A DNA stretch of 64,000 nt from Calditrichia bacterium. Its GTDB lineage: Bacteria > Calditrichota > Calditrichia > RBG-13-44-9 > J075. Under the pieces are notes generated by a model that worked only from the letters and a program-made list of their open reading frames with translations, did no database searches and had not been told where the DNA came from. The translations under genes were made by a program, and so were the position numbers. Positions 15,366 to 45,694 of the stretch are shown here, piece by piece (position 1 is the stretch's first letter; each line of letters opens with the position of its first letter). Location: contig OZ245730.1 in assembly GCA_965227145.1 (NCBI GenBank), positions 3,086,187-3,150,186 on the forward strand, written 5' to 3'.

Positions 15366-16982
15366 CTATCGCCAGAGCTTTTCCCATTCCCAACCGGCGG
15401 CAATGCGCAACTGCATATCGGATGTTGCCTGCCCCTCAAAATGCTGGAAATTGGAAATATCTGAGTAAGTCAAATCAAACCGCAAATATGCCAGGTGATG
15501 CGGTTTGTAAAACGCCCGAACACCGCTTTGCCAATTCCGCTCGACAATCCCGAACGGAAACGGTTCATCATAGCCTTCTTCCGGCGTAAAATTCAGAAAA
15601 TCTTCGTTAAACACACCGGCAACACTCCCCTCCCCCTGTTTGGTAAATCGGGTGAAACCGGTGAGTTGCAGCTCCGGTTTCAGCCAGTAATCCAGATCCA
15701 GCGCGAGTTGCCAGAAATTATTGCCCAGATAGTGCCCGATTTCCTCGTTGCGATGCAGGTATTTGCCAAACGGCGGCGCAGCGACGTTATACGTGCGGTT
15801 CCGCACCTGTGTGTACGACAGATGCAATTTGCTGCCGGAAAATCCCGCCGGATTAGCCCATTGAAATCCGAGCAGCAGCCCCAGTTCCGCAGGCTCAAGA
15901 TCGCCGGGCGCCTCGTTATCCACCTGATAATCATCAATCAACAATTCGCCGTAGATGTTCATTTGCGGGAAAACATACAGATCCCAGTCGATGGTATAGA
16001 GCACGTTGGCGTTGGTTCCGCCGACTTCCTGATTCAAATTGTAGAGATAATAAAAGGACAGCGGATTGACAAATCCCATCTCCCAGGAACGGTTTTCGCC
16101 GCCATACAACGCAACTTCGGAGATGCCGATGTAAATGCGATTGCGAAGGTTCAGGCGCAAACTGTGTCCGTTGAGATAGCGGTTGGCGATATAACTGCGG
16201 TCATCGATGATCCGCTGGCGATCCAGCTGCATCCCCCAAAACGAAAATTGCAGCACAGATTTACCGAATTTGAGATGATACATATCAAACGGACGGCTAT
16301 TGGCGGAGAACAGCAATTGGGCATCCCGTCCGGGACCGGACTGCAGCCAGTCCCGCCCGACTTTGATGCTCAGCCAATCCTGCCGGTATTGCAAATAACC
16401 TTGCTCCATATAGCCGTATAAATTACGGTATTCCTTGCCAATATAGGTCGATGGCGCATCGCTGAAGACCCGGAGATTGCTGTAAAATGTAAACGATTGG
16501 TTGAGATTGCCCATCACTGTTGCATGGGCATCGTATTCGGTTTGGGTATCGGTATCGCGGGAATCTTGCAGATAAAGTTCACCAAAAAATCCCGGTTTTA
16601 TTGCTGTTGAGCGATCGGGTATTTCCAACGGCAGTTTCAGGACACCCATTGCAGTGTTAAATAATTCGCGCCAGTCGCCCAAACGTGCCAACTGGGCAAT
16701 TTCCGGGCTGAATTCCCGATAGAGCAAACGGATGATCGATCGGTCTTTTGCGGAAAGCTGCTGCTGCCAACCGATGTTTAGCAGTTCCCGGGCAATGGCG
16801 TCCCGTTCCAGCGGTCGCTGGTTGACATCGATACCGGGCAAATACCCGGCAACTTTAAGATAATCGATATAATCATTTGCCCAATGATACGGCGGCAGGG
16901 TTTCCTGTCCAAATAACGTCACTGAACTGAAGATAAGCAGAAATAATATGTTGCGAAAACGTTGAATCATGGATCGCCTCAA
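15366..16982 (-). CDS. Capsule assembly Wzi-like outer-membrane protein (putative)
   Basis: 538 aa, N-terminal signal peptide, aromatic-rich beta-barrel-like composition, C-terminal aromatic residues; adjacent to polysaccharide genes. Confidence 0.5.
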   Translation of the reverse strand: MRRSMIQRFRNILFLLIFSSVTLFGQETLPPYHWANDYIDYLKVAGYLPGIDVNQRPLERDAIARELLNIGWQQQLSAKDRSIIRLLYREFSPEIAQLARLGDWRELFNTAMGVLKLPLEIPDRSTAIKPGFFGELYLQDSRDTDTQTEYDAHATVMGNLNQSFTFYSNLRVFSDAPSTYIGKEYRNLYGYMEQGYLQYRQDWLSIKVGRDWLQSGPGRDAQLLFSANSRPFDMYHLKFGKSVLQFSFWGMQLDRQRIIDDRSYIANRYLNGHSLRLNLRNRIYIGISEVALYGGENRSWEMGFVNPLSFYYLYNLNQEVGGTNANVLYTIDWDLYVFPQMNIYGELLIDDYQVDNEAPGDLEPAELGLLLGFQWANPAGFSGSKLHLSYTQVRNRTYNVAAPPFGKYLHRNEEIGHYLGNNFWQLALDLDYWLKPELQLTGFTRFTKQGEGSVAGVFNEDFLNFTPEEGYDEPFPFGIVERNWQSGVRAFYKPHHLAYLRFDLTYSDISNFQHFEGQATSDMQLRIAAGWEWEKLWR

Positions 16983-17183: not shown

Positions 17184-18608
17184 TCAATAGGCGCCTTTGC
17201 CGAGGAAAGCCACCGGAATCGTTTCAAACAGGATTTCCATATCAAAGAAAATGGACTGGTTTTCGATATAATAGAGATCCAGCAAACACATTTCCTCGAA
17301 CGAGAGATTACTTCTGCCGGAAATTTGCCACAGTCCGGTGATACCCGGCTTGGTGTTCCCGCGCTTGGCATACCAATCGTAATTCACTTTGCCATTTTTG
17401 ATTTTGTTAAAATCATTGATCGGCAAGGGACGCGGTCCAACGATGCTCATATCCCCTTGTAATACATTAATAAACTGGGGAATTTCATCCAGGCTGTATT
17501 TGCGGAGGAATTTGCCGACCGGCGTTACCCGGGGATCATCCTTCATTTTGAACAATGCGCCGTTGGTTTCGTTATTTGCCCAGATTTTATCTTTCATGTC
17601 ATCAGCATTATCATACATGGTGCGGAATTTATAGAACCAGAATTCCGGGCCGCCTTTATACAGCGAACGTCTTTGTTTGAAAAAAACAGGACCTTTTGAA
17701 GTTAAGCGGATCATCGCTGCAATAATGGCACCGGCCGGAATGAGTAAAATACTGGCAAAAGCCAGAATAATTAAATCGAAGACCCGCTTCAGTCGGGACT
17801 GCCACACCGGCACCCGCAAACGCCGGCTGTCCGTGGATAGCGGCACGCCGGTAACATCTTTTACCTTGATCTGGTTCATCAGTTTTTTAACATCCGGCGA
17901 CACCATTTTAACCGCAACCCCAAAATGTTCGCAGGCTTTGCGGATCGGTTCGTATTTCTTTTCCAGCATGGAATCGCTGACAATAAACACTTTGTCGATG
18001 CCGTGTTCCGGGATAATCGTGTCCACATCGTGGTATTTACCGATAATATACGGCGCAATTTCGGGATGGTGATGGGGCGTGCCGTTGGCGATAAACCCGC
18101 GCAAATCGTAATAATCACCGTATGCATCCGTCAGGATTTCGGTAAAGCGCAGGGCAGACAGATCAGTGCCAACCACCAGTATCCGCTGATTGCCAAATCC
18201 CTTATTAAACAGGCGCAGGTTGATTTTGTGCATCAGGGTGTGCATGACTTCCAGAATGATGTATTGGGACATCAGAAAGATAATTACCACGCCTCGGGAA
18301 AACTCATGTCCCTTGATCAAGAACAGATAGGACATCGTGAGCAGACCGAGGTAGTAGGTCATTATTTTGAGGTGCTGTTTCTGATGCAAAATCGGGCTGC
18401 TGTAAACACTCCGGTAAAGCCCGAGGATAGCGGCCAGCGGGAAAAAGATCAGGTTGACAAATAGCCAGGGCTCAAAATATCTGGCTAAGGGTTCATCCAA
18501 TTCCGGGAAACGAAGATACAGCGCCAGCCGGAAAGCAGCGTTGATCATGATGAAATCGCCAATCATGACGAGCATCGTATAGACGAATCGCCAATTCCGT
18601 TTTAGCAT
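17184..18608 (-). CDS. Initiating polyprenyl-phosphate sugar phosphotransferase (WbaP/CpsE-type bacterial sugar transferase)
   Basis: 474 aa; N-terminal TMs and C-terminal catalytic domain (KRVFDLI, FFKQRR, YKFRTM, RVTPVGKFLRKYSLDEIPQFINVLQGDMSIVGPRP). Confidence 0.9.
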   Translation of the reverse strand: MLKRNWRFVYTMLVMIGDFIMINAAFRLALYLRFPELDEPLARYFEPWLFVNLIFFPLAAILGLYRSVYSSPILHQKQHLKIMTYYLGLLTMSYLFLIKGHEFSRGVVIIFLMSQYIILEVMHTLMHKINLRLFNKGFGNQRILVVGTDLSALRFTEILTDAYGDYYDLRGFIANGTPHHHPEIAPYIIGKYHDVDTIIPEHGIDKVFIVSDSMLEKKYEPIRKACEHFGVAVKMVSPDVKKLMNQIKVKDVTGVPLSTDSRRLRVPVWQSRLKRVFDLIILAFASILLIPAGAIIAAMIRLTSKGPVFFKQRRSLYKGGPEFWFYKFRTMYDNADDMKDKIWANNETNGALFKMKDDPRVTPVGKFLRKYSLDEIPQFINVLQGDMSIVGPRPLPINDFNKIKNGKVNYDWYAKRGNTKPGITGLWQISGRSNLSFEEMCLLDLYYIENQSIFFDMEILFETIPVAFLGKGAY

Positions 18609-19808: not shown

Positions 19809-20005
19809 GCTGCCATTAAGTTAAGGATCAAAGTGGGCAGTTTTGTCACCCTGAGCTAAGTGTCACCCTGAGCACAGTGTCACCCTGAGCGCAGTCGAAG
19901 GGTCGATGGGTCGATGGGTCGATGGGTCGATGGGTAATTTTGCCGTGCATATATCATGGTTCGACTTCGCTCACCATGACAGGTTGTGCTTAACTTAATG
20001 GCAGC
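19809..20005. repeat. 17-bp perfect inverted repeat pair (GCTGCCATTAAGTTAAG / CTTAACTTAATGGCAGC) bracketing a 163-bp repeat-filled segment
   Basis: Arms at 19809..19825 and 19989..20005, read directly. Confidence 0.8.
19845..19936. repeat. Tandem repeat tract: 3 x 16-bp GTCACCCTGAGCnnnn units then (GGGTCGATG)x4
   Basis: Direct reading; reverse-complement copy with 8 units at 22195..22366. Confidence 0.85.
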
Positions 20006-20107: not shown

Positions 20108-21037
20108 TTACGGCTGCTGGGCCAGATACCATTGATAGGTTTGGGTAATGCCATCCCGTAAAGAGATACCGGCTTTCCACCCCAAACCATTCAGTTTGGA
20201 GACATCCAGCAGTTTGCGGGGCGTGCCGTCCGGTTTGGATGTGTCAAACGTTAGTTCACCGCTAAAACCAACGATATCCTTAATCAGCAGCGCCAGGTCT
20301 TTTATTGCGATATCCTCACCCACCCCGATATTGACAATCTCGCTATCTGCATAGTGCTGCATCAGATACACACAGGCATCCGCCAGATCATCCGCATGCA
20401 GGAATTCCCGTTTGGGTGAACCAGTCCCCCAGATTTCCACGGACGGTTTTCCGGCAAGTTTGGCTTCATGAAACTTGCGGATCAGCGCCGGCAGGACGTG
20501 GGAACTTTGCAGATCGAAATTATCGTTGGATCCATACAAATTGGTGGGCATCACCGAAATAAATGATGTGCCATACTGGCGATTAAAGGACTGGCAGGTT
20601 TTGATCCCGGCAATCTTGGCGATAGCGTAAGGCTCGTTGGTCGGTTCCAGCTTGCCGTCCAGCAAATGTTCTTCCTTCATCGGTTGCGGGGCGAATTTGG
20701 GATAAATACAGGAGCTACCCAAAAACAGCAGCTTTTTCACCCCGTTCCGGTAGCTGTGATGAATAATATTGGACTGGATCATCAGGTTATCGTAGATAAA
20801 ATCCGCCGGATAATCGTTATTGGCCAAAATGCCGCCCACTTTGGCGGCAGCCAAAAATACGTATTCCGGCTGCTCTTTTTCAAAGAAAGCCGCAACGGCT
20901 GCCTGATTCCGTAGATCAAGTTCTGCGGATCGTTTGAGCACCAGATTGTTAAATCCGTTTGATGCCAACCGCCGTGCTATGGCGGAGCCAACCAGACCGC
21001 GATGTCCGGCTATGTAGATTTTTGATGTTGTTTTCAT
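20108..21037 (-). CDS. fcl: GDP-L-fucose synthase
   Basis: 309 aa; extended-SDR motifs [11 protein letters not shown], YxxxK (YAIAKIAG), and Fcl-typical NLYGSNDNF. Confidence 0.9.
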
Positions 21038-21040
21038 GTT

Positions 21041-21092
21041 GGGTGTATGGGTTAGTGGGTGAATGGGTTGATGGGTTATGGGTTGATGGGGA
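21041..21092. repeat. Simple repeat tract (GGGTnnATG-like nonamers)
   Basis: GGGTGTATGGGTTAGTGGGTGAATGGGTTGATGGGTTATGGGTTGATGGGG. Confidence 0.8.
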
Positions 21093-21525: not shown

Positions 21526-21750
21526 TTACAATTGTTTCAGGAGACTGTCATAATCGGCGTGGGAACATACCCAGAACCAAGGGATGTAATCCGTTTTTAT
21601 TACACCAACTGCCCGGTAATCCCTGCTTATTCGCACGGAATATACCGGCAGACTTGAATGAATTCTCTTAAATCGGAGTCCGGGATACCAGGGATCTTTA
21701 CGGAATACAGCATAAGCTACTTTTGCCTGTTTTTTTATTTCTGCAGGCAA
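21526..21750 (-). CDS. RelE/ParE-superfamily toxin-like protein (type II TA toxin, putative)
   Basis: 74 aa; VYSVRISRDYRAVGV...IPWFWVCSHADYD resembles the RelE/ParE beta-sheet core; sits just downstream of a small acidic ORF. Confidence 0.5.
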   Translation of the reverse strand: MPAEIKKQAKVAYAVFRKDPWYPGLRFKRIHSSLPVYSVRISRDYRAVGVIKTDYIPWFWVCSHADYDSLLKQL

Positions 21751-21792
21751 ATCATAGTAATTTTTTCAAAAATCGGGATGTTGCCTTTGATC

Positions 21793-22014
21793 TCACAATT
21801 TGTCAATGTCCAGATGGGTCGCATTACCCTGTTCATCTTCTTCCAACGCTTCCAAAGCCAGCTTAGCCAATGCGTCTTCAGATTCAGCAAACTTTTTATC
21901 CCACAGTTTTTCCGAATCAATTTCATCAAGTATCCAACGCGCTAATGCATTTTGTTCGATTTCCGGAAGCCGGGACATTTTTTTAAACGCTTTTTCCAAT
22001 AAACGGGTCATCAT
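21793..22014 (-). CDS. Putative antitoxin partner of the RelE/ParE-like toxin
   Basis: 73 aa, acidic C-terminal half, directly upstream of and co-oriented with the toxin ORF (43-nt gap). Confidence 0.4.
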   Translation of the reverse strand: MMTRLLEKAFKKMSRLPEIEQNALARWILDEIDSEKLWDKKFAESEDALAKLALEALEEDEQGNATHLDIDKL

Positions 22015-22107: not shown

Positions 22108-22166
22108 AGCTTTTAGCTTTTGGCTTTTAGCTTTTGGCTTTTGGCTTTTGGCTTTTGGCTTTTGGC
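22108..22166. repeat. (GGCTTT/AGCTTT)n hexamer tract
   Basis: AGCTTTTAGCTTTTGGCTTTTAGCTTTTGGCTTTTGGCTTTTGGCTTTTGGC. Confidence 0.85.
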
Positions 22167-22194
22167 AAGAAAACCCAGGGTTTACCTTCCGCCG

Positions 22195-22366
22195 CTTTGC
22201 CGCTTCGACCCTTCGACCCTTCGACTGCGCTCAGGGTGACACTGCGCTCAGGGTGACACTTGCTCAGGGTGACACTGCGCTCAGGGTGACACTTGCTCAG
22301 GGTGACACTTGCTCAGGGTGACAATCGCTCAGGGTGACACTGCGCTCAGGGTGACACTGCGCTCAG
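22195..22366. repeat. Tandem repeat tract: (CCTTCGAC)x3 then 8 x 16-bp GCTCAGGGTGACAnnn units; inverted copy of 19845..19936
   Basis: Direct reading; reverse complement gives GTCACCCTGAGC units as in the 19.85-kb tract. Confidence 0.85.
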
Positions 22367-22470
22367 GACAAGCCTTTTACTTTTTCCCTTCGGCTTCGCT
22401 CAGGACGAGCCTTTTTACTTTTTACTTTTTCCCTTCGGCTTCGCTCAGGACGAGCCTTTTTACTTATTTC
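22357..22470. repeat. ~48-bp direct repeat x2 (CGCTCAGGACRAGCC-TTTTTACT-TTTTCCCTTCGGCTT) just 3' of gmd
   Basis: Direct reading. Confidence 0.7.
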
Positions 22471-23565
22471 ACTGCTTCATCTGTTTTTCAATCTTGGCCA
22501 ACCGGTAATCTGCGACAATCATAATATCGACCAGTTCCCTGAAGGTGGTTTGGGGTTGCCAGCCGAGATGTTTTTTGGCTTTAGCCGGATCACCGATCAG
22601 CAAATCCACCTCGGTGGGACGGTAATAACGCGGGTCAATGGCCACAACCGTTTGCCCGACGCGAAAGGCCGGAGAGCGTTCCAGTCCCGGCAATTTGGGA
22701 TCATCGATATTGGCAATCACCGCATATTCTTCGCTACCGTTGCCCTGCCACTGCAAGGTTACCCCGAAGCCATCAAACGAGGCTTCGATAAATTCCCGAA
22801 CAGAATTGGTCTGTCCGGTTGCCAGCACAAAATCATCCGGTTCGCTTTGCTGGAGCATGCGCCACATACCTTCCACATATTCCGGTGCGTAGCCCCAATC
22901 GCGTTTGGCATCGAGATTTCCCATAAACAATTGTCCTGCTCGCCGATAGCCATCCGGGTAATCGCCCGGGTGATCTTGCGGGTCACAAAAGTTTCCCCGC
23001 GCCGGGGCGATTCGTGGTTAAACAAAATCCCGTTGCAGGCAAAGAGGTTATAGGCTTCGCGATAGTTCACGGTGATCCAGAAGGCATACATTTTGGCAAC
23101 GCCGTAAGGGCTGCGGGGATAAAACGGGGTGCTTTCCGTCTGCGGCACTTCCTGCACTTTGCCGTAAAGCTCCGATGTAGAAGCCTGGTAAAACCGCGCT
23201 TTGATACCGGTTTCTTTAATCGCATCGAGAAAACGCAGCGTGCCGACAGCATCCACTTCCGCAGTATATTCCGGCACCTGGAAAGAAACACCGACGTGAC
23301 TCTGGGCGGCCAGATTATAAATTTCATCCGGCTGCACCTTTTCAAGAATGCGGTTGAGGTTGGAGGAATCGGTCAAGTCCCCGTAATGCAGCACCATTTT
23401 GCGGGGCTGTTCGTGGGGATCCTGGTAAATATGTTCAATACGCTGGGTGTTAAAATTGCTGGCGCGACGGACAATGCCGTGCACCTGATAGCCTTTTTCA
23501 ATCAGCAGTTCAGTTAAATAACTGCCATCCTGACCGGTTATGCCGGTAATGAGTGCCTTTTTCAT
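22469..23565 (-). pseudogene. gmd: GDP-mannose 4,6-dehydratase, reading frame broken by an apparent 1-nt deletion (or sequencing error)
   Basis: Track ORFs 22759..23592 and 22469..22930 are the N- and C-terminal parts of one Gmd ([31 protein letters not shown] / [12 protein letters not shown]). Frames switch at 22925..22936, where GACAATTG would read through as GACAAATTG. Likely start is the second Met (MKKALITG) at 23565. Confidence 0.8.
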
Positions 23566-23718
23566 TGATGCCTCATGATTTTCTTTTGCCATGAATATTC
23601 ACGAATGGTCACGAATATCTGTAATTTTTGTCTTGAAATCAATGCTTGTATGAATTGACAGATGTCAATCATTGTTTGGGTAAATGGGTGTATGGGTAAA
23701 TGAGTGAATGGGTATAAG

Positions 23719-23940
23719 ACGCACCTCGTTACAGGCTCCTGCCTGGAATGTCTTTATCCGGTGAGGGATGATTTGGATACAATAATGGAACAGCTACGAT
23801 GTTCGACGCACCTCGTTACAGGCTCCTGCCTGGAATGTCTTTATCCGGTTATTTGGATACAATAACGGAACATCTACGATGTTCGACGCACCTCGTTACA
23901 GGCTCCTGCCTGGAATGTCTTTATCCGGTTAGGGAAGCAA
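23719..23940. repeat. ~86-bp tandem direct repeat, about 2.6 copies, upstream of gmd
   Basis: Unit GACGCACCTCGTTACAGGCTCCTGCCTGGAATGTCTTTATCCGGT...TTTGGATACAATAATGGAACAGCTACGATGTTC; partial fourth copy at 24086..24120. Confidence 0.85.
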
Positions 23941-24063: not shown

Positions 24064-24393
24064 GTTGGTCGGTTGGGTGAAATGATTTGGCTACAATAAT
24101 GGAACATCTACGATGTAATCTTGTGTATGGTCAATTGTCAATTGTCGATGGTCGATGGTCAATTCCGAGTTCCCCGCCGCGAAGCGGTTCCTTCGGAAAA
24201 GGAGCATCTTCGGCGTCGAGTTTCGAGTTTCCGATTCCATCTGGAGCAAAACTACCGCAAAAATAAACCAATAACCTATATAATGAAAAAACCCTGCTGC
24301 CGGGTGTACTCCCGGTCGATCAGGGTTATGTTGTTGCTAGTGAAACGTCTTAAACAATAGGGAAATGGAACAACCCAGTATTAATGGATAACT

Positions 24394-25503
24394 TCATTTT
24401 TTTGAAAGTGTCATTTTTTGAAACAACTCGATATACTGATCGGTTATCTTACCCCAGGTGTAGCATTCCGTTATCCTGTTCCGGGAAATCTTTCTTTGGG
24501 CAGAAATTATATTGGGATTTTCTTCAAGGGATTTAATCAAGTCGATTAATGAATCGTCATGCTTGCGAAAATATACGCCATATTTGCCATTGTCCAGCAC
24601 TTCCCGGCTAAAACGGGTATCCAGTGCAATAATCGCACACCCATAAGCCAGGGCTTTTAGCAATGTTGGATTTGTACCACCAAATTCATGCCCGTGAAAA
24701 TAGGCAAAACAATTATGATAGAGTTCAGCCAATTCATCCTGATCGGTTACATAGCCGGTAAAAATCACGCGGGGATCGCTAACCTGTTTTATTTTCTGGG
24801 CATAGTCATCATTATAAGGCACATCACCGACCACGACCAGTTGCTTGTCTGAATTTGATTTTACAAACCGCTCTACAATCACATCCGCATTATTATCCGG
24901 GATCAGGCGACCAACAATTAAATAATACCCTTCTTTTTGTAGTTGCCAGCGTTCGATGAGTTCCGGTTGTTTGGAATGTCGAATATTTGCACCATAGGCA
25001 ATGACGGTTGAATCGGCATTAAATGTCTCTTTATAAATCTTACCCATTTCAACAGAGTCGGTAATAATTTCATTATACAATTTGGTCGCTAATTTGGAAG
25101 CAGTGTAAAAATATTTTGCCCCTAATCCTTGCCATTTGGGGCGCAGCCATTCCAAACCATCCACATTGATTGCGGTTCTTTTACCCAAAATACGGGAAAA
25201 CAAACCAAACGGTCCGTTTGCCGAGTTAACTGCCAGAACAAGGTCATAATCTTTTGTGCAGGCATGTATCATGGATTGGAAAGAATGAACAAACTGGCTG
25301 AGCGTTTTTTTCTCTATAGTGTTAATATAAACAAGGTTCACACCATTGACGGTATCGGGATAAGTGGTAAAAAGGTTCTTGTGACAATAAACCGTTACAT
25401 CAATACCTTTTTTGACCAGCCGCTCACATAGTTCCTTTACAAATGTTTCATAACCGCTATATACGTAAGGATAGCCGCGTGAGCCAATAATCGCGATTTT
25501 CAT
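24394..25503 (-). CDS. Glycosyltransferase, GT-B fold (family 1/4-like)
   Basis: 369 aa; C-terminal [19 protein letters not shown] resembles the GT4 E-x7-E sugar-donor motif. Confidence 0.75.
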
Positions 25504-26219
25504 TCTTTGATTCTTTTCTTAATAAGTTTCGCAGGTATCCCCGCAGCAATAGAGTTTTTTTCGATATTTTTTGTTACGACTGAACCCGCAGCTATAATAC
25601 AGCCATCTTCGATAACAACGCCATCCAGAATAGTGCTGCCGGCACCGATCCAGCAATCATTTCCAATTGTTACACCTTTCCGGCTTTCACCTTGCAGTCG
25701 AACGGGTATCTCCGGATGATCGTAATTATGATTTTCCGAAAAGATTCGAACACCCGGGCCCATAATGACATCATTACCAATGGTTATACCACCTTGCCCC
25801 CCAAGAAAAGATTGGGCGCCGATGGCTGAATTATTGCCAATAGTAATCCCAATTCCCTTATTTGCGATAACGCCACTACAAACCAAACTTGTGTATTTTG
25901 CGACAGTAACATTATTACCAAAACAAATGCCCTCATGAGAGAGGGCATTAATGTGTACAAAATCTTCGATAATCAACCCATTTCCGGCTTGAATCATATA
26001 GGGATGCTCAAAACGGGTATATTTTCCAATAAACACCAATCCTTTTACTTTGCGGAAAAAAAATCGCTTGATTAAGCCACGACATAATTGCATACCACGA
26101 GTGTTAAGAATGCCAAGCAACTCCCGGTTGGTCAGTTTAACTTTAAACCGGTAATCCGGATTTTTTTTTAGGATACTGACAATTTTTTCAATGACTTTCA
26201 GCAGGTGCATTGATACCAA
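25500..26219 (-). CDS. Hexapeptide-repeat (left-handed beta-helix) acetyltransferase, WcaF/serine-acetyltransferase-like
   Basis: 239 aa; repeated [LIV]-G-x-x-x-x hexads ([33 protein letters not shown]...[13 protein letters not shown]). Confidence 0.8.
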
Positions 26220-27318
26220 CCGCTTTCTCGCAACTCCGGATCAAATCCCGGGCAGCTTTCTCCCAGGAAAATTTTGCTGCCTGTTTTAATGACAGTTGCC
26301 GCTTTTGTTCATATAGTTCCGGATCAGTCAACAGTTTATCGATCATATTAGCAATACTTTCGGGGGAATGGGCATCCACATAATTACCGGCATCTCCGCA
26401 AATTTCCGGTATGGAGGATGAGTCTGATACAACTACCGGAATCCCGGAAGCCATTGCTTCCAAAGGGGGAAGCCCAAAACTTTCTTCATATGATGGAAAA
26501 CAAAATACTTTTGCAAGAGAGTAAACTGCCGCTAATTCCTTACCGAAAACCGGGCCAGTAAATATCAAACGGTTTCGAATTCCCAATCTGTCTATGGTAG
26601 ATTCCACTTCACCCATTTTCCAGTCAAAGCCACCAACAATAACCAGGGGAATATTTTGATTTTCAAGTTTGGGAATTGCACTTAATAAATTAAAGATATT
26701 CTTGCGAACATTTAATCTGCCAACATATAACAAAAATTCATCCGGTAATTTATATTTTGACTTAACCGACAAAATTGTTTCAGCGAGCTGTTTGGTTAAC
26801 GGCTTAAAATTTGTGTTAACGCCATGATGAATGACATCTATTTTGGTTTCACTAATGCCATAGTGGTCAGATATACGCTTCTGCTCCGCATATGAAACCG
26901 TATTGATACGATCCGAATGTTTTGCCAAAAATTTTAGCGGCGAGAAATATAATCGCTCTTTCCAGGTGTAATATTCAGGGTGAGTGAGAAATATAATATC
27001 GTGAATATAGGCGATTTGTTTGTAATTTGTAAAAAGTGATGGGAAATTTTGATAAACAAGAACATCAATATTGTGTTCTTTGGCCACCTTAGGCAAGACA
27101 AACAAATTGGAAACCAGATTATTACCTGCCCAGATATTTGCTAATTTGATATTGGGTTTTTGATATGGAAAAGTGTTTTGACGCTCCTTTTCATCAAGAA
27201 AAAAAACAAATTCATGATCTGTATTTGCTTCGGCCAGTTTATTAACCAGGTTTTCAATAACAACTTTACCGCTTGCAGGTCCTTTAAAATACCATTTAGC
27301 ATCTATGCCGATTTTCAT
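26188..27318 (-). CDS. Glycosyltransferase family 4 (GT-B)
   Basis: 376 aa; YVGRL...[29 protein letters not shown]. Confidence 0.85.
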
Positions 27319-28550
27319 ATCGTTTTATTCACTCGAATTGCATCACTCATTATTTGTAGCATTTCTTTACGCCGTAAATTCCATGAAAAATTATCCAAGA
27401 TCCTTACTTTACATGCTTCTGCAAATTGCAATCTTAAATTAGTGTTATGGTATAGTTCTTCCATGCTATTTTTGAGATATTCTATTACCTCTTTTGTATT
27501 TGTTGGCGGTATTTTATATCCTGTGTTTTCGTCAACTTGTAAGGCTGGCCCACCAATATCCAAACATATAACTGGCCTTCCCGCGGCCATTGCCTCGGCA
27601 CAAACCCATCCACCCGAGTCGTGAAAACTTGGATGCACTAATGCATCGCTATCTTTTAAAACACCAAAAACCTCTTCCCGGGAAAGGTTACCCATGAATC
27701 TCGTTTGTTCCTGAATACCAAGTTGGCTAGCCAGATCCTTTAAGTTTTGAAATTCGGGACCTTCTCCAACTATCCAATATTCCGAGTGAATATCACCTGA
27801 TTTTAAGAACTCCGCAAAGGCCTTTAAACCTAAGTGGTAACCTTTCCAATGCAACAATCTGCCAATACTAACAAAGATCAGATTGGGATTTTTGTTGATT
27901 TGGAATTGGTTTAATTTTTCGATGTCTTTTAAAGGCAATGCAACATTTGACATTATTTGTATATTTTTAACACCTGCTTTATGCAATCGTTCTTTGGTCT
28001 GTTCGGATGTTGCTAGAGCTATTGTAGCCCGTTTTACGGTTAATTTCCAAAGTATATCGAATTGAACAAGAGATCTTACGATATCTCTTTTATGCTCAAA
28101 AATTTTTCCATTTAGATCTAATGACTTGTATAAGCTTTTTGGCGCTGATTCACCACCACCTACCGGTCCCCAGATAAATGGAATGGGTAACAAACATAGT
28201 AAGCTTGGTAACCAATATGAGCCAAATGTTGCATGTTGAATTACATCGAAATTAATTTTATTATTAATTTTTTTTATCTTGAAATAAATAGCTATCTGCC
28301 ATAAATAATAATAAACTCTTGCACCACGAGAACCTTTTTTCCAAAATCTTAGGTAGTATGGTAAATCATAGTATATCCAATGTGTATTTTGCGGTAAAGA
28401 TTGGTTCTTAGTAACAGGTATGCTATTATTTTCCCTGGTTATAACCCATATCTCATTCTCAATTGATAATTGTTCGACCCAGTTCCAACCGATACCTGCT
28501 TCAGAGCCTTTACCGGGTTCACATGCGTAAGCGGATACTAATATTTTCAA
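27315..28550 (-). CDS. Glycosyltransferase family 4 (GT-B)
   Basis: 411 aa; SIGRLLHWKG, HPSFHDSGGWVCAEAMAAGRPVICLDIGG. Confidence 0.8.
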   Translation of the reverse strand: MKILVSAYACEPGKGSEAGIGWNWVEQLSIENEIWVITRENNSIPVTKNQSLPQNTHWIYYDLPYYLRFWKKGSRGARVYYYLWQIAIYFKIKKINNKINFDVIQHATFGSYWLPSLLCLLPIPFIWGPVGGGESAPKSLYKSLDLNGKIFEHKRDIVRSLVQFDILWKLTVKRATIALATSEQTKERLHKAGVKNIQIMSNVALPLKDIEKLNQFQINKNPNLIFVSIGRLLHWKGYHLGLKAFAEFLKSGDIHSEYWIVGEGPEFQNLKDLASQLGIQEQTRFMGNLSREEVFGVLKDSDALVHPSFHDSGGWVCAEAMAAGRPVICLDIGGPALQVDENTGYKIPPTNTKEVIEYLKNSMEELYHNTNLRLQFAEACKVRILDNFSWNLRRKEMLQIMSDAIRVNKTI

Positions 28551-33512: not shown

Positions 33513-34301
33513 TCACGAATAAACAATTTTTATATATTTTCTATATATTAATAAGGTTGAACATAATATTCTATAGATTTTAAGACCAAACTCATTATTC
33601 ATTAACTTTATACTTGAGTATCTATTAAATACTTTAAAACCTTCTTTATATCTTATTTCACGAACATTTGGCACATCTAAAGACTTGTTTGAATTATGCC
33701 ATCTGAAAATGGCAAAGAAATCATTTACATATTTTAATTTATATCCAGAATATAAAATATGAGCAAAAAACTCTTTATCCATTGTTAGTTTAAAATTCTT
33801 ATCAATTAGTATGCCTGAATCAATAATTTCTTTTCTAAAGAAGAAAGTTGTAGAAGGGATATAGCAATGATAAAGTGAAAGCCATTTAATAGGTATGTGC
33901 GAATATACTTTTTGTACCTTCTTATTTGATTGAAAAAGCAAATAAAAATTTGAATAAAATGCATCAACATTCGGGTTATCAATAAAATACTTGCTAATTT
34001 TATGAAATGTTTTAGTGCAGTATTGATCGTCAGCGTTAAGCCATCCGATTATTTCACCTGTTGCTAAATGGAATCCTTTATTTAAAGCATCACTTTGACC
34101 TTCATCTTTTTCTGAAATCCATTTCAAATGCGGATACTCTTTAACTATTGAAAGTGTATCATCTGTTGATTCTCCATCAACAATTATATGTTCAAAATTG
34201 TTATAATTTTGATCTATTACACTATTTATGCAATCTTTTAAATATTTTGCACTATTGTATGATGGAGTAATAATAGATATTTTAGGATATTTTTCTGACA
34301 T
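33513..34301 (-). CDS. Glycosyltransferase family 2
   Basis: 262 aa; ISIITPSYNSAKYL, IVDGESTDDT, GWLNADD (DxD-type). Confidence 0.85.
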   Translation of the reverse strand: MSEKYPKISIITPSYNSAKYLKDCINSVIDQNYNNFEHIIVDGESTDDTLSIVKEYPHLKWISEKDEGQSDALNKGFHLATGEIIGWLNADDQYCTKTFHKISKYFIDNPNVDAFYSNFYLLFQSNKKVQKVYSHIPIKWLSLYHCYIPSTTFFFRKEIIDSGILIDKNFKLTMDKEFFAHILYSGYKLKYVNDFFAIFRWHNSNKSLDVPNVREIRYKEGFKVFNRYSSIKLMNNEFGLKIYRILCSTLLIYRKYIKIVYS

Positions 34302-35544
34302 TTGATATACGTTTATTTGTGGAAAAATTAAGTATCAACGAAAATGAAATAAAAATCCAGCTTACAACATCGGCCCCATAACCAATCATATACATAATCA
34401 AGGCTATAGTAGATAGAAAACTTAGTCTATAAACAAATTTATCATTTGGGTCAATATTTTTCATTCTAATTTTAATGTACGATTTATATAAGAAACTAGA
34501 TACAAATAAAATTACTAAAGAAATCCCCAAATATCCCAAATAGTATAGTGTTTGAATAAAACCGTTATGAGCTCCTGCCATCGCCTGATCACCAATTAGT
34601 TTTGCATGCACAATGAATCGAGCTCCTAACCCATTTCCCATAAATGTTGCATTATCAATTACAGCATTCCAAATCAACATTCTCCACGAGCCTGTTGCGT
34701 CAGCGTCAAAATCGGTAAATGCAGTTAATCTCTGCTGTATAAATGCAATATCAATCTGTATAAAAAAACCCACAATGAATCCAACAACTGCCACGAGGAA
34801 CATATATTTATAATTTTGAACCCAAAGAAAAATTATGGGCACTGTTGCAAAAAGAATTGCCCAAACAGTGCGATGACTTGTATATGGAATCATAATCACA
34901 AAAATAGGTAACAGAAACAGCGGCAATCTATAACTTTTATCAATAAATTGGTAGTAAAGTAATCCAGATAAGAAGCCCAAAGTAATAGTTTCATACGTCA
35001 ACGCACCAAATTGGCGATTTGCCACACTTAGCGAATAATTATTTGTCAGGACTAAATTAAGAGGTGCTAGAATTATTAATGGCATAAGGTAAGTACTTAG
35101 ACCCTTAATTAATTCCAATACTTCTCTTTTTCTGACATTAGTTGAAATATATATCATGATAATAATATAATAAAAAACTGAACGAAATTCAGCAATACTC
35201 GCATATCCAAATTTAACTCCACCCATAAAAACAGATACAAATACAAAACCAAAAAATAGTCTCACGATATCGTTTTTAAAAAACAATGGAGAGTTTCGGG
35301 TTTTACTTATTTTTTGATGAATAATAAAAACCACCATCAATAACAAAGCAATGTCTGTTGGTTGTGTTCGAATAGGCGTAAGAGTTAATGATGTTATTCC
35401 ATTTTCCCATGAGTTTCTTTCAATAAAAAACATAAATAGAGTGAATATTAAAATAAACTCATTTCTGGTCTTTGCCTTATACAAGAAGTAGATAGAATAT
35501 AAAATAATAATATATAATAGTGCTGGATGACCTGATATATACAT
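34282..35544 (-). CDS. Polytopic membrane protein, O-antigen polymerase/ligase (Wzy-like) candidate
   Basis: 420 aa with about 10 hydrophobic helices and a larger loop near the C-terminal third; position within the GT cluster. Confidence 0.5.
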   Translation of the reverse strand: MYISGHPALLYIIILYSIYFLYKAKTRNEFILIFTLFMFFIERNSWENGITSLTLTPIRTQPTDIALLLMVVFIIHQKISKTRNSPLFFKNDIVRLFFGFVFVSVFMGGVKFGYASIAEFRSVFYYIIIMIYISTNVRKREVLELIKGLSTYLMPLIILAPLNLVLTNNYSLSVANRQFGALTYETITLGFLSGLLYYQFIDKSYRLPLFLLPIFVIMIPYTSHRTVWAILFATVPIIFLWVQNYKYMFLVAVVGFIVGFFIQIDIAFIQQRLTAFTDFDADATGSWRMLIWNAVIDNATFMGNGLGARFIVHAKLIGDQAMAGAHNGFIQTLYYLGYLGISLVILFVSSFLYKSYIKIRMKNIDPNDKFVYRLSFLSTIALIMYMIGYGADVVSWIFISFSLILNFSTNKRISNVRKIS

Positions 35545-35586: not shown

Positions 35587-36732
35587 CTAATTAATTTCAT
35601 GGATTTGTTCAATAACCCTTTGCCATCCTTTAAACCATAACCCAATATTGTAATTTTCTCTAACATTTTGTTGTTGTTGTTTTGCTATAAATTCCGTATT
35701 CTTGAGCAATTTAATTAAATTATTTTTAATACTCTCTGGTAATGTTTCTACTTGTATGGATGGGAGATCTCTTAATCCTGCGACGTTTGTTGTAATTGTA
35801 GGACATCCACAAGCCATACTTTCCAATGCACTTAGTGATGTACCTTCTCTTCTCAAGGTAGGGATCAGTGTTAACCTCGCTGTTGAATAATATTTTACTA
35901 TTTCATTATTGGTTATATCATGTCTCCAAATGACTTGTTCATCCAATGAATATTTATTGATTAATTCATCACAATACTCTTTATAATCTAAACCTCTTAT
36001 TGTACCAATAATCAACAATGTATATCCGGGCACTTCATTATTAAACAAATGAAATGCCTCGATTGCCAAATGAATACCACGATCCACAGTTATTTGTCTT
36101 GGAACAAGAATTATCTTTTTGTTATGAAATTCTGCAAGCGGTTCAACCTTATTAAACTTTTGAGAATCTACACAATTAGGAATAAACCATTTATTGGGTG
36201 CAACTTCCTGAAAGCAATTTTTCTTAGGTTCAACATCAAGACCTAATGTACGGAAATAATGTGTGTCATTTGCAACAATTGTAAATCTGTTAAACGTTTT
36301 TTTTGCTATCCATAGATGAATTCGATCATCCAAACTGGTGCTTTCAATATTCCATTCAACACCATGCGACAGGACAATTACTTTTTTGTTAATAAACCAA
36401 AGCGGTAAGGCATAAAATGCATAATGAACAATAATGATATCTTCTTTTAGAAGTGACAAAATACGTGTTAGCAATAACAGGCTAAATAAATATTGTCCAA
36501 TTTTAGGTATAAATCTTCCCAAAAACGGTATATTAAAAACCAATTTCACTTTGGGATCTTTGCTTTTGGAAAAATAGTGATATTGTTTGTTAATCGGTTG
36601 GTAAACGGTGCTAACAATACCTTGTTCATCAAGCATTTTAAGCATGTTTGCAATGTAAACCTCCTGCCCACCGACAACAGGTTGATAACAATAGCTTATA
36701 TGCCCTATTTTTTTTAAATTATTCTTACTCAT
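35587..36732 (-). CDS. Glycosyltransferase family 4 (GT-B)
   Basis: 381 aa; PTLRREGTSLSALESMACGCPTITTNVAG. Confidence 0.8.
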   Translation of the reverse strand: MSKNNLKKIGHISYCYQPVVGGQEVYIANMLKMLDEQGIVSTVYQPINKQYHYFSKSKDPKVKLVFNIPFLGRFIPKIGQYLFSLLLLTRILSLLKEDIIIVHYAFYALPLWFINKKVIVLSHGVEWNIESTSLDDRIHLWIAKKTFNRFTIVANDTHYFRTLGLDVEPKKNCFQEVAPNKWFIPNCVDSQKFNKVEPLAEFHNKKIILVPRQITVDRGIHLAIEAFHLFNNEVPGYTLLIIGTIRGLDYKEYCDELINKYSLDEQVIWRHDITNNEIVKYYSTARLTLIPTLRREGTSLSALESMACGCPTITTNVAGLRDLPSIQVETLPESIKNNLIKLLKNTEFIAKQQQQNVRENYNIGLWFKGWQRVIEQIHEIN

Positions 36733-37858
36733 TCAAAAATTCAGAAACTATTCTTTTAATATTAATACATGATTTACCATCTCCATATGGATTATCAGGA
36801 AGCGTCATTTGTTTGTATACGTTGGTTTTTGTCAATAATGTTTTTACGCCATAATAAATCTTGTTTGCATCAGTACCAACCAGGATAGCATTTCCGGCTT
36901 CAACACCTTCCATACGTTCTGTTACATCTCGCATTACTAACACAGGTTTATCCAATGAGGGTGCTTCTTCCTGAATACCGCCAGAATCTGTCAAAACCAG
37001 GTATGATTTGTTTAACAACCAAATAAAGTATTTATAATCCAGTGGGTCAATCAAATAGACATTTTTACAATTTGACAATATACGGTGAACAGGCTTTTGG
37101 ACTGACGGATTTAAATGCACTGGATAAACAAATTGGACATCACTAAAATTTTCTGCTGCCTTTCTGATGGCTAAACATATCTGTTCAAAAGGCTGCCCAA
37201 AACTTTCTCTACGGTGTGCAGTGATCAAAACAATTTTTTGATCGAATTTTAACATATCAAAATAATTATAAAAATCCATTTCATCAGAGTGATTGACTTG
37301 CTCTAGTCCCAATAACAATGCATCTATGACCGTATTCCCAACATTATGAATATTTGTTGAAATATTTTCATTCACAAGATTGTTAACAGCCAGTTGCGTA
37401 GGACAAAAATGGATGGTTGCAATTTTGGAGATCAATAAACGATTCATTTCTTCTGGAAAAGGGGAATATTTGTTAAAACTTCTTAATCCGGCCTCAATAT
37501 GGGCGACAGGTATTTTATTATAAAATCCAACCAATGCGCCCAAACAAGCCGTGGTTGTATCGCCCTGAACAAAGATAATATCCGGTTTTTCATTTACGAT
37601 AACTTCTGAAAGATTATTAATAATTGTAGCGGACAAATATGCCAATGATTGATTTTCTCGCATTACCTTCAGATCATAATCTGGCACAATATTAAAAAAA
37701 TTTAAAATATGATCCAACATTTGACGGTGTTGGCCTGTTGAACAAATTATTGTTCTATATTTAGGATCGATGTAATATTGTTTAATAAGGGGAGCAAGTT
37801 TTACTGCCTCGGGTCTCGTACCAAATATAAATAATACTTTTATCTTAAGTTTCCTCAA
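36725..37858 (-). CDS. wecB: UDP-N-acetylglucosamine 2-epimerase (non-hydrolysing)
   Basis: 377 aa; FGTRPEAVKLAPL, HIEAGLRS, TAHRRESFG, LTDSGGIQEEAPSLDKPVLVMRDVTER. Confidence 0.9.
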   Translation of the reverse strand: MRKLKIKVLFIFGTRPEAVKLAPLIKQYYIDPKYRTIICSTGQHRQMLDHILNFFNIVPDYDLKVMRENQSLAYLSATIINNLSEVIVNEKPDIIFVQGDTTTACLGALVGFYNKIPVAHIEAGLRSFNKYSPFPEEMNRLLISKIATIHFCPTQLAVNNLVNENISTNIHNVGNTVIDALLLGLEQVNHSDEMDFYNYFDMLKFDQKIVLITAHRRESFGQPFEQICLAIRKAAENFSDVQFVYPVHLNPSVQKPVHRILSNCKNVYLIDPLDYKYFIWLLNKSYLVLTDSGGIQEEAPSLDKPVLVMRDVTERMEGVEAGNAILVGTDANKIYYGVKTLLTKTNVYKQMTLPDNPYGDGKSCINIKRIVSEFLNE

Positions 37859-41327: not shown

Positions 41328-41978
41328 TTAAAATCTCATTTCCTTAGCTGGGTTACCAAATACTTTTTTAGGCTTGAGTATGGATTGTGTTACAACTGAT
41401 CCTACCCCAATAAAACAATCGTTGACAATTTTGGTTTCAATGTTAATCGTAGAACTATTACTAATATATACTCTATCTCCGACATTCGATCTGGCACCAA
41501 TAACTACACCAGCACCAAGTAAGCATGAATTACTTATTGTAACATCGTGTCCTAAAATAGAGCCATAGAATATGTTGTTAAAATTACCGATTTTGACGTT
41601 AGACCCAAACAGTACATTCTCATATATTATATTCCCAATACCTATCTCAGAAAAAGTTATATCTGTTTTTGGATGAATAAGATTTGGTAGGTTTGTAATA
41701 TTGTATTCGTTTTTTATGCGTTTTATAATAGATTCATGATGTTGGGTTGATTGAAAAACTGTATTAACAACAGCGCATTTCTTATATTTTGACTTAAGTA
41801 ATTCATCTCCTCCAATGATAGGTACACCAAAGATATCTTTACCTATACATTCTTTATCCTTTTCTAAAAAACCGATAATATTGTAAGTTTTTTTTTGCTC
41901 ATTAATTGCTTTTATCAACTTTATTATATCTGAGTCTCCAGCACCGATAATCACTAAATCTTGCATCATGTCCTTCAA
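41328..41978 (-). CDS. NeuD/PglB-family hexapeptide acyltransferase (sugar N-acyltransferase)
   Basis: 216 aa; N-terminal Rossmann-like VIIGAGDS, then hexapeptide repeats (IGNFNNIFYGSILGHDVTISNSCLLGAGVVIGARSNVGDRVYI). Confidence 0.8.
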   Translation of the reverse strand: MKDMMQDLVIIGAGDSDIIKLIKAINEQKKTYNIIGFLEKDKECIGKDIFGVPIIGGDELLKSKYKKCAVVNTVFQSTQHHESIIKRIKNEYNITNLPNLIHPKTDITFSEIGIGNIIYENVLFGSNVKIGNFNNIFYGSILGHDVTISNSCLLGAGVVIGARSNVGDRVYISNSSTINIETKIVNDCFIGVGSVVTQSILKPKKVFGNPAKEMRF

Positions 41979-42904
41979 TCAGTAAAAAAATCGTTAATTT
42001 TAAACTTATCTGTATTATCTGTAAAAACTAGTATAGTACCATCAGTAGTTTTAACGATGATCCCACCATCACTAAAGACTTCACAAACTGTGCCTGCTTT
42101 ATAAGTAGGGAAGAAATTCTTTTCAAAAGGAATACCTTTAAATACCTTTACAACTTTCCCATTAATATAAGTATGTGCAAGTGGATATGGTTTTTCTAAA
42201 GCACGAATCAAATTATAGATATGTTCAGTATTAAACTTTTGCCAAAGGATTTGCCCATCTTCAATTGACCTTTTTCGGAGATATATAATATTTTCTTTAA
42301 CTTTCTGACTATTAAAAGTTAAAGTGTTGTTAGATATTTCTTGAAACAAATTTTGTATAAATTCTTTTGCAACAATACTGATTTTTTTGTATAAACTAGA
42401 ATTATTATCAAATTTTGATATTTCAATTTTTTTATGGTACACTATTGGACCATTGTCTACTTCAGGCGATACCTTAAACAAATAAAAATTATATTCTTTA
42501 TATCCCCCAGCAATTGACCATATCACAGGTGATCTACCCCTGCCATCAGGTAATTCAAAAGGCGATCCATGAAATCCAAAACAACCTTTTTTAAAAAAAC
42601 TGAGAATGTTGTTTGGTATTAACCTGTTCCATCCAATTACTAATCCTATATCTGGTTCACAGTTCTTAATATAGTCTAAATCACTTTTCGATTTTAGATT
42701 ATATTTGTCTGCAAAAAATATTTCGTCTGTCGGAGCATTAACAATATTCTCATAATACTCACCAAGACCGATTTTATCTGCTTTTTCTTTCGAAATTGTA
42801 ACCAATGTAGATTTATTAAGATACATTAAATCAATATTCAATAAAATATCATATGCAGGCTGATTAACTCCAAAAAAAATCGTATTATAACCTTTATCTT
42901 TCAT
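41975..42904 (-). CDS. Formyltransferase-family protein (sugar N-formyltransferase candidate) with C-terminal extension
   Basis: 309 aa; GFHGSPFELPDGRGRSPVIWSIAGG resembles the formyl_trans_N catalytic loop. Confidence 0.6.
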   Translation of the reverse strand: MKDKGYNTIFFGVNQPAYDILLNIDLMYLNKSTLVTISKEKADKIGLGEYYENIVNAPTDEIFFADKYNLKSKSDLDYIKNCEPDIGLVIGWNRLIPNNILSFFKKGCFGFHGSPFELPDGRGRSPVIWSIAGGYKEYNFYLFKVSPEVDNGPIVYHKKIEISKFDNNSSLYKKISIVAKEFIQNLFQEISNNTLTFNSQKVKENIIYLRKRSIEDGQILWQKFNTEHIYNLIRALEKPYPLAHTYINGKVVKVFKGIPFEKNFFPTYKAGTVCEVFSDGGIIVKTTDGTILVFTDNTDKFKINDFFTD

Positions 42905-43571
42905 ATGATCTTACCAAATTGAATCCTTCTGCGAAATTTAATCCAGATTCCCCACCTCTTACAACTGCTAGAGCTCTTATATATTCCTTACTTCGCGGAT
43001 GAGGTGGTTGTTTCAGTTCTGTTTCATAATATTTAATTAATTCAATTTTATCTTCTATATAATTTTCGATATTAATATAATAATTAAATTTGAAATTTTT
43101 ACTTGCGCTAAATGCAGCGTCTGATGAAGATGGTATTTCATAAGCAAATATAGAATTAATATAAGTCGAATAATATGGCTTTGTCGACATTTCAACAAGT
43201 TCATATGCTATTTTATGTTCATGATTGAAGTCCCAAGGTGAAGGGGTAAAAATAATATTCGGCTGTATTTTATCTAAAACAGATATTAATTTTTCCTGTA
43301 GATTATTTAAAGGGATTGTATCCAATTGGTTATCTTTATAGTCCCATTTTATAACATTACTGATATTAAGCTTACCAGCAACTTGGTTAATAGCATTATC
43401 TCTTGAATTTATCGCATATTCCGACCATTTTGGCTGCCAAATTGAAGTCAAGATCAACCAGTATAGTTCGTTAACCTCTGGATTAGATGCCAGTTTTACT
43501 AAACTACCCCCCATTCCAAAACATTCATCATCAGCATGAGCAGATATTATTAGTATTTTTCGTTTTTTCAA
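42894..43571 (-). CDS. PIG-L/LmbE-family N-acetylglucosaminyl deacetylase
   Basis: 225 aa; LIISAHADDECFGMGG (zinc-binding AHxDDE motif). Confidence 0.85.
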   Translation of the reverse strand: MKKRKILIISAHADDECFGMGGSLVKLASNPEVNELYWLILTSIWQPKWSEYAINSRDNAINQVAGKLNISNVIKWDYKDNQLDTIPLNNLQEKLISVLDKIQPNIIFTPSPWDFNHEHKIAYELVEMSTKPYYSTYINSIFAYEIPSSSDAAFSASKNFKFNYYINIENYIEDKIELIKYYETELKQPPHPRSKEYIRALAVVRGGESGLNFAEGFNLVRSYER

Positions 43572-44698
43572 TTCACTAACCGATTTATTTCATTCGTAAT
43601 AGTATGGATATTTTCCGATGATAATGAACTAAACATCGGTATTGTAAATAAGTTAGAGGAAACATATTCAGTATTTGGAAGTGCAAGGTTTTGATTCTTG
43701 TATATTAAAAAGTTATGCACAGATGGATAATGGACACTCGTTTGTATTCCTTTTTTCGCGAGTTTTGATCTAATTTTATTTCGAATATCAGCATTACCGT
43801 TTTTTAGTATTAATGGAAAAATATAATTTGATGAAAATTCACTATAATGTTCAAATGGGATAATTATATTACTAGTTTTATTAAAGTTTCTAATATATTC
43901 TTTTCTAACTTCTGCTCTTCTATTCAGGTCATTTTGTAATTTATTCAGCTGAACTAGCCCAATTGAAGCTCTGATATCATCTATTCTGTAGTTAAAACCT
44001 AATTCTATAACATCGTAACTGGTTGAGTGTCCTTTCGCCCGCTCATATGAAAGTGATGTCATACCATGGGATCTTAACAATTTCGTTTTTTCAAACAATT
44101 CACTATTATTAGTTACTAACATGCCACCTTCACCGGTTGAGATATTTTTATTTGAAAAGAAACTAAAACATCCGACATCCCCTATTGTCCCTAACTTTCG
44201 TCCTTTATATTCTGAAAGTGGGGCATGGCAAGCATCCTCAATCACTTTAAGTTTATGCTTTTTTGCGATTTCCATTATTCTATCCATATCGCAGGCAAAA
44301 CCACCATAATGCATTACCACAATTGCTTTGGTATTACCAGAAATCTTTCGTTCGATATCTGCCGGGTCAATTGTTAAATCTTCCAAACTGGTTATATCTG
44401 CAAATACTGGTATCGCGTTAACATAACGAATGGCATTTGCAGTTGCCACAAAAGTAAGAGAGGGACAGATCACTTCATCGCCTTCACCGATATCCAGCAA
44501 AAGCATAGCCAGATGCAGTGCAACCGTACAATTTGCCAGTGCAACAGCATGTTTAGCACCAAGCATTATAGCAAACCGCTCTTCAAACTCGGCCGTCTTG
44601 GGACCTGTAGATATCCATTTGGAACGAAGCGTTTCTAATACAGCTTGTTCTTCTGCTTCATCAAAATTTAATTCAAATAGTGGTATTTTATATGACAT
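43568..44698 (-). CDS. DegT/DnrJ/EryC1/StrS-family sugar aminotransferase
   Basis: 376 aa; fold-type I AT pattern, FSFFSNKNISTGEGG PLP-lysine region. Confidence 0.9.
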   Translation of the reverse strand: MSYKIPLFELNFDEAEEQAVLETLRSKWISTGPKTAEFEERFAIMLGAKHAVALANCTVALHLAMLLLDIGEGDEVICPSLTFVATANAIRYVNAIPVFADITSLEDLTIDPADIERKISGNTKAIVVMHYGGFACDMDRIMEIAKKHKLKVIEDACHAPLSEYKGRKLGTIGDVGCFSFFSNKNISTGEGGMLVTNNSELFEKTKLLRSHGMTSLSYERAKGHSTSYDVIELGFNYRIDDIRASIGLVQLNKLQNDLNRRAEVRKEYIRNFNKTSNIIIPFEHYSEFSSNYIFPLILKNGNADIRNKIRSKLAKKGIQTSVHYPSVHNFLIYKNQNLALPNTEYVSSNLFTIPMFSSLSSENIHTITNEINRLVN

Positions 44699-44707
44699 AT
44701 TCGTTTC

Positions 44708-45694
44708 TTAAATATTATAAAGGTCTGATTTATACATTTTCAGATTACTCTTGTCTTTAAACCAATTAATCGTTTCGGTTATTCCGTTTTCCAAAGAAAA
44801 TCGTGGCTTCCAACTTGTATTGTTTAATATTTTCTGATTACATCCAAATAACCGATTCACTTCACTTTTCTCGGGGCGGATTCGAATTTCATCAGTAATA
44901 AAAGATGCTTGAATATTGATTTTATCAATTATCAATTGAGCCAGATCCCCAATAGCAATCTCTGAATTTGTGGCGATATTGATATGTTCTCCGATTAATT
45001 GTACATTTCTGGCAATTTCCAAAAAACCTGAAATAGTATCTTTCACATATACCAAATCACGCGTAGGAGATAAGGCACCCAGTTTTATCTCTTTTTTACC
45101 ATTAAGAAGCTGGGTGATAATTGTTGGTATAACCGCACGTGCGGATTGCCGGGGACCATAGGTATTAAATGGCCTGACAATTGTCACCGGTAAATTAAAA
45201 CTCCGATAATAAGATTCGGCAATGGCATCAGCAGCAATTTTTGTAGCAGAGTACGGCGATTGCGGTTGCTTTGGGTGGTCTTCATCGATCGGAACATATT
45301 GCGCTGTTCCATACACTTCAGAAGTTGATGTAACTAAAATTCTTTTTGTATTAAGTAGTTTTGCAGCTTGTAGAATATTAAGTGTCCCTTTAATATTTGT
45401 ATCGACGTATGAATCCGGTGCAATGTAGCTATATGGTATCCCAATTAATGCAGCAAGATGAAATACTGTATCTACATGTTGCATCGCGGTAAAGACGGCA
45501 TTATTATCCCGTATATCGCCGCTAAAGATTTCTATATTATTTACAATATCTTTTGGAGTATTTTCTAACCATCCCCACGTGTTAAAAGAGTTATAATATA
45601 CAAATGCTTTAACATCATATCCTGCGGTAACCAAAAACTCAGTTAAATGACTACCGATGAAACCATCGGCACCTGTTACTAGAACTTTTTTCAT
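44708..45694 (-). CDS. NAD-dependent nucleotide-sugar epimerase/dehydratase (extended SDR)
   Basis: 328 aa; VTGADGFIGSHL, STSEVYG, YSATK (YxxxK). Confidence 0.85.
   Translation of the reverse strand: MKKVLVTGADGFIGSHLTEFLVTAGYDVKAFVYYNSFNTWGWLENTPKDIVNNIEIFSGDIRDNNAVFTAMQHVDTVFHLAALIGIPYSYIAPDSYVDTNIKGTLNILQAAKLLNTKRILVTSTSEVYGTAQYVPIDEDHPKQPQSPYSATKIAADAIAESYYRSFNLPVTIVRPFNTYGPRQSARAVIPTIITQLLNGKKEIKLGALSPTRDLVYVKDTISGFLEIARNVQLIGEHINIATNSEIAIGDLAQLIIDKINIQASFITDEIRIRPEKSEVNRLFGCNQKILNNTSWKPRFSLENGITETINWFKDKSNLKMYKSDLYNI

Follow-up and report, generated by a model that had tools for sequence, protein, structure and literature searches.

GDP-mannose 4,6-dehydratase, the product of gmd, carries out the first step of GDP-fucose synthesis. 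Natural rough strains of Brucella melitensis Rev.1 carry a frameshifted gmd (c.82delG, p.Ala28fs; PMC7762576), and residual indels that break gene calls have been documented for long-read assemblies (PMC9262707). We analyzed a stretch of 64,000 nucleotides of DNA from a Calditrichia bacterium (hereafter the window), in which gmd is interrupted by a frameshift, and compared its lesion with both.

Like the Brucella mutation, the lesion in the window is a single-G deletion in gmd that strikes a surface-polysaccharide pathway and is predicted to abolish the enzyme. The Brucella lesion lies near the N-terminus and is tied to a rough phenotype, whereas the break in the window falls at residue 210 of 365 and is known from sequence alone. 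The window also resembles the long-read assembly errors, in that an otherwise perfectly conserved gene of a single-contig genome is split by an indel of one base within a mononucleotide run. Such errors, however, are concentrated in long homopolymers and usually affect many genes, whereas the run in the window has 3 bases and gmd is the sole broken gene found in 64 kb.

The restored protein aligns with Escherichia coli Gmd (PDB 1DB3) over residues 2-361 (E=8e-152) and shares with it the GxxGxxG, S/T-x-E, and YxxxK motifs; fcl follows, as in colanic-acid and O-antigen loci. Unlike E. coli gmd, the gmd of the window is divided between two frames, with both pieces scoring below the curated family cutoff.

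The gmd gene is split between two frames

The gmd gene is located on the minus strand of the window, and its two halves, which are in different frames, meet at positions 213/214 of the TIGR01472 profile. Its features are as follows.

22469-23565, minus strand: gmd as a whole, split in two frames
22759-23565, minus strand: 268-aa ORF starting MKKALI (TIGR01472 positions 1-213, E=7e-117)
22469-22930, minus strand: second gmd ORF, in the other frame (TIGR01472 positions 214-340, E=1.4e-50)
22935-22936, minus strand: site of the 1-nt deletion, GG (plus strand CC) versus GGG (plus strand CCC) in close relatives, from alignment to L001-L008
22936-23565, minus strand: N-terminal part of gmd in its native frame, codons 1-210 (MKKALITG...AIGEQ), from the TIGR01472 match
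22759-22935, minus strand: out-of-frame tail of 58 residues, ending MASG and then a stop, from translation
22469-22935, minus strand: C-terminal part of gmd in the shifted frame, ending KIEKQMKQ, with its stop at 22469-22471, from the TIGR01472 match

As recorded, the encoded product has 268 residues, 210 native and 58 nonsense, and lacks roughly 40% of Gmd, namely its last ~155 residues. Scored as encoded, the N-terminal piece reached 390.4 bits and the C-terminal piece 172.4 bits, both below the curated TIGR01472 cutoff of 415; with one base added at the junction, the resulting 365-aa protein scored 580.7 bits. Coverage of the profile was collinear, 1-213 for the N-terminal piece and 214-340 of 342 for the C-terminal piece, with neither loss nor overlap. 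The N-terminal piece keeps the extended-SDR motifs GITGQDG (GxxGxxG, the NADP-binding Rossmann motif), STSE (S/T-x-E), and YGVAK (YxxxK, catalytic), which align with the corresponding residues of E. coli Gmd 1DB3, and the C-terminal part was 100% identical to residues 211-365 of the restored protein by tblastn.

The original prediction of a single-base frameshift that splits an otherwise collinear gmd is borne out by these two profile halves and by the full-length protein that one added base yields; the lesion falls inside the interval that it gave, 22925-22936. The locus is gmd by descent, yet as written it holds no intact gmd. No second gmd copy was found in the window, where the sole other match was a 32%-identical SDR at 44708-45694.

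We also noticed an in-frame ATG further upstream (window 23566-23592, MAKENHEAS-), which makes the longest gmd ORF 9 codons longer. Here L001 shows a 1-nt gap, and the protein of every relative begins MKKALI; therefore, we take the ATG at 23563-23565 as the true start of gmd.

The missing base is a G rather than an A

A protein search with the restored sequence yielded a cluster of eight 365-aa proteins, 97-99% identical, from ENA or Logan metagenome assemblies, one of them on a 105-kb contig labelled Calditrichia_J042. At the DNA level, the loci L001-L008 represent seven distinct gmd sequences. Among these relatives and the window, gmd diverges at 24-50 of 1098 positions (2.2-4.6% nucleotide divergence). 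A continuous 365-aa gmd ORF with GGG at the site was present in all seven, on at least nine contigs from independent metagenome assemblies.

At the junction, the close relatives read GAGCAGGGACAATTG (E-Q-G-Q-L) in 7/7 distinct sequences, and the window reads GAGCAGGACAATTG. On the minus strand, the window has GG at the site, and all close relatives have one G more, GAGCAG[G]GACAATTG. The lone gap in the 1098-column gmd alignment is one G of this GGG run. Because all seven distinct sequences carry GGG, the lost base is a G of GGG and not an A; it lies 6 bases upstream of the AA/AAA site proposed originally, so that the lesion is not in an A-run as first thought. The repair suggested at that time, GACAATTG to GACAAATTG (EQDKLF), does restore the frame and reproduces the commonest motif of distant Gmd sequences, but this lineage has a different state (EQGQLF). 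Among about 80 distant gmd loci, 18 carry QDKL, the commonest motif there, and D/E/K followed by K/T/R was found in all outgroups (75-84% identity). With the G restored, the window Gmd differs by one residue from P0121.

We built a neighbor-joining tree rooted with L089, an 84%-identical relative, with 200 bootstraps. The window was sister to L002 in 195/200 bootstraps and basal to the clade with the G-Q codons (GQ clade) in 0/200. The window is thus nested in the GQ clade, implying that its GG is a derived loss on a short terminal branch and not an ancestral state.

The GQ-clade codons GGA CAA (G-Q) equal the GAC AAR (D-K) of L089 and other outgroups offset by one base (G+GACAA versus GACAA+R; window 22922-22940, minus strand). 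Such an offset would be expected from an old compensated indel pair at the same site, and could also have come about by three substitutions. The window itself was considered as an ancestral intermediate of such a pair (DK GACAAR to GQ GGACAA), which was rejected because of its place inside the GQ clade.

In the protein clusters, the truncated 268-aa product is a singleton. Its one record comes from the contig of the window, on which Fcl and the adjacent glycosyltransferase of the window are also encoded. In the genome contig collection, an exact-pattern scan across the junction gave zero matches and a related-locus scan found nothing above 77% identity; a pattern scan of JGI metagenomes, with 0-2 extra bases permitted at the site, likewise gave zero matches.

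The sequence of gmd shows no decay

Five gmd substitutions are unique to the window. All are third-position and synonymous, and two of them are downstream of the frameshift. In the restored Gmd, C-terminal part included, we found no amino-acid state unique to the window among the compared relatives. Compared with L002, gmd has 22 synonymous and 2 non-synonymous codon differences, fewer changes than any other gene of the locus shows for its conservation rank, and there are zero amino-acid differences across the 211 codons of the N-terminal part. In the other sampled members of the species, gmd is under strong purifying selection.

By our calculation, about three quarters of changes are expected to be non-synonymous under neutral decay, and the observed 0/5 would have a probability of about 0.001 if gmd had been nonfunctional since the terminal branch began. 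The frameshift must therefore be of very recent origin, unless it is no biological event at all.

The assembly around gmd is otherwise clean

We compared the 21-kb locus of L002, the nearest relative, with the window by blastn, and about 14.6 kb aligned at 96% identity. There were 22 gaps in this alignment; that of gmd alone is coding, and the other 21 lie in intergenic repeat arrays. About 50 ORFs spread over the 64 kb were scanned with Pfam and NCBIfam; domain coverage was full-length, and no other gene was split. Furthermore, the four A5-A6 homopolymers inside gmd are all correct and show no length variation. Indel errors are thus not widespread in the record, a point that speaks against an artefact but would be compatible with a single error.

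Repeats crowd the intergenic DNA on either side of gmd and fcl (window 19844-19935, 21040-21090, 22109-22470, 23673-23931, and 24130-24164). They consist of composite short tandem repeats, namely GCTTTTG x8, CTTCGACC x3, a 45-nt unit, an 80-nt unit, TGGGTGAA-like octamers, and a 17-nt unit ACTGCGCTCAGGGTGAC x8.7 with an inverted copy at 19844-19895, and their copy numbers are unequal in the window and L002. The short-read metagenome contigs with this gmd are all just 1.3-1.7 kb long, which suggests that assemblies break in the flanking repeats.

gmd belongs to a polysaccharide locus with a remodelled distal half

Judging by gene content, gmd is part of a large predicted Wzx/Wzy-type polysaccharide locus, with the following features.

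15366-16982: Wzi
17184-18608: initiating sugar transferase
20108-21037, minus strand: fcl, intact, for GDP-L-fucose synthase, which acts after Gmd in the pathway (NF047922, 520 bits versus a cutoff of 500, positions 3-305/308)
21526-22014, minus strand: two-gene module between gmd and fcl, a toxin and its partner
21526-21750, minus strand: ParE-like toxin (PF24732, E=4e-12)
21793-22014, minus strand: 73-aa toxin partner, upstream of the toxin, with no family match
24394-25503: GT4 glycosyltransferase with a DUF1972 domain
25500-26219: acetyltransferase
34282-35544: Wzy
36725-37858: UDP-GlcNAc 2-epimerase
41975-44698: aminotransferase/formyltransferase block
46408-47916: Wzx

Additional GT4 and GT2 genes are located between the acetyltransferase and Wzy. 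The toxin/partner insertion between gmd and fcl is likewise present in L002, and the gmd-proximal part of the locus is syntenic with L002 at 96% identity up to window 27328 (24161-27328; L002:1-5363). Beyond this position, the glycosyltransferase and modification genes of the window and L002 are unrelated, implying that the repeat unit differs between these close strains. The switch at 27328 resembles the replacement of a serotype-like cassette among strains of one species.

Outside these genes, the stretch at 53708-53923 encodes just the C-terminal portion (PF05635 positions 48-103) of a 23S-rRNA-intervening-sequence protein, a four-helix bundle. Next to it, at 53963-54247, is the gene for a GIY-YIG nuclease, and the displaced N-terminal piece of the protein could correspond to a short ORF at 54323-54487. 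Insertion of a GIY-YIG element may have interrupted the 23S-rRNA-intervening-sequence gene here (window 53708-54487); an intact paralogue of the protein is encoded at 49778-50200.

Consensus error or very recent loss of function

The deletion, its exact position, its uniqueness to this assembly, and the absence of decay were observed directly. That an error rather than a mutation took the base away is what we infer, at even odds. The most likely reading, by a narrow lead (probability about 0.5), is that the missing G would be a consensus indel error, introduced by assembly or polishing of this single-contig 6.28-Mb genome. We favor it because decay is zero, the frameshift is unique to the assembly, gmd is under strong purifying selection across the species, and fcl is intact. 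The organism would then hold an intact, functional gmd and a working GDP-fucose pathway. Distinct alleles of the species (L004, L006, L007, and L008) come from sample accessions with neighboring numbers, and consensus polishing would be error-prone if strains of the species co-occur in one sample.

Against a consensus error stands the otherwise clean assembly, with no other broken gene (~50 ORFs), no other coding indel (14.6 kb), and all four 5-6-base homopolymers within gmd correct. A three-base run is an atypical site for long-read errors, and polysaccharide loci are often hit by genuine inactivating mutations; both count against an error as well.

A genuine and very recent loss of function has a chance somewhat short of even. 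One G would have been lost from GGG by replication slippage, leaving no active Gmd and no GDP-fucose or other GDP-6-deoxyhexose for the surface polysaccharide, unless a gmd copy is present elsewhere in the genome. A high error rate cannot be invoked where 64 kb hold no other frame-breaking indel. The window has no second gmd. The locus is of the Wzx/Wzy type (Wzx, Wzy, many GT4/GT2 genes, Wzi, and the initiating transferase), and its distal part is remodelled relative to L002 past 27328, so that fucose may be dispensable. There is also precedent for single-G gmd deletions in rough variants, as in B. melitensis Rev.1 c.82delG (PMC7762576). Weighing on the other side are zero decay (0/5 non-synonymous), an intact fcl, and a frameshift absent from all other sampled members of the species. 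Without decay, a genuine mutation would have to be extremely young, and the same data fit an artefact equally.

It is tentatively possible, with odds a little under those of a genuine loss as such, that a very young GDP-fucose knockout accompanied the exchange of the distal locus half that is seen against L002. Sequencing error and genuine inactivating mutation had been the two main alternatives offered from the start; both survive, and sequence alone does not separate them.

Slippage, phase variation, and recoding

A third suggestion made from the outset, that this is a slippage-prone site, was not supported, as the runs here are just 2-3 bases long and GGG is invariant in all relatives. The same applies to its stronger form, a contingency locus in which a slippage tract switches gmd and fucosylation on and off by phase variation. 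In its favor, the indel falls within a run of one nucleotide, and phase variation classically affects genes for surface polysaccharides. Known phase-variable tracts, however, are long homopolymers or multi-copy short repeats. Here the site has two Gs in the window and three in the relatives, the neighboring A-run is AA, and there is no long tract; tract length is constant, with GGG in 7/7 distinct relatives, and so are the longer A5-A6 runs of gmd. We consider phase variation very improbable.

Least probable of all is that gmd is expressed despite the frameshift, by programmed -1 frameshifting or unconventional recoding, or by reassembly of two fragments into an active enzyme: independent initiation is conceivable, since an in-frame ATG (22922-22924) with AGGA 9 nt upstream opens the C-terminal part (MGNLDAK), but the same AGGA/ATG occurs in intact relatives and hence is no adaptation, the N-terminal fragment would bear a 58-residue nonsense tail, the junction ATC GGC GAG CAG GAC AAT TGT TTA TGG lacks an X XXY YYZ slippery heptamer, and the two-frame layout is not conserved, every relative having a single 365-aa ORF.

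Implications for the Calditrichia gmd

Whether the missing G is a consensus error or a mutation, this is an ordinary frameshifted gene, and its importance outside annotation is slight. For the repair of frameshifts it holds a lesson, as the fix drawn from the family consensus (DK) differed from the fix backed by the nearest relatives (GQ). A consensus error would call for restoring GGG in the record and annotating gmd as an intact gene, with GDP-fucose synthesis then predicted for the organism. If the loss is real, the organism would be a natural gmd-null strain in a Calditrichia species in which every other member sampled has kept gmd, and an altered, fucose-free surface polysaccharide would be expected.
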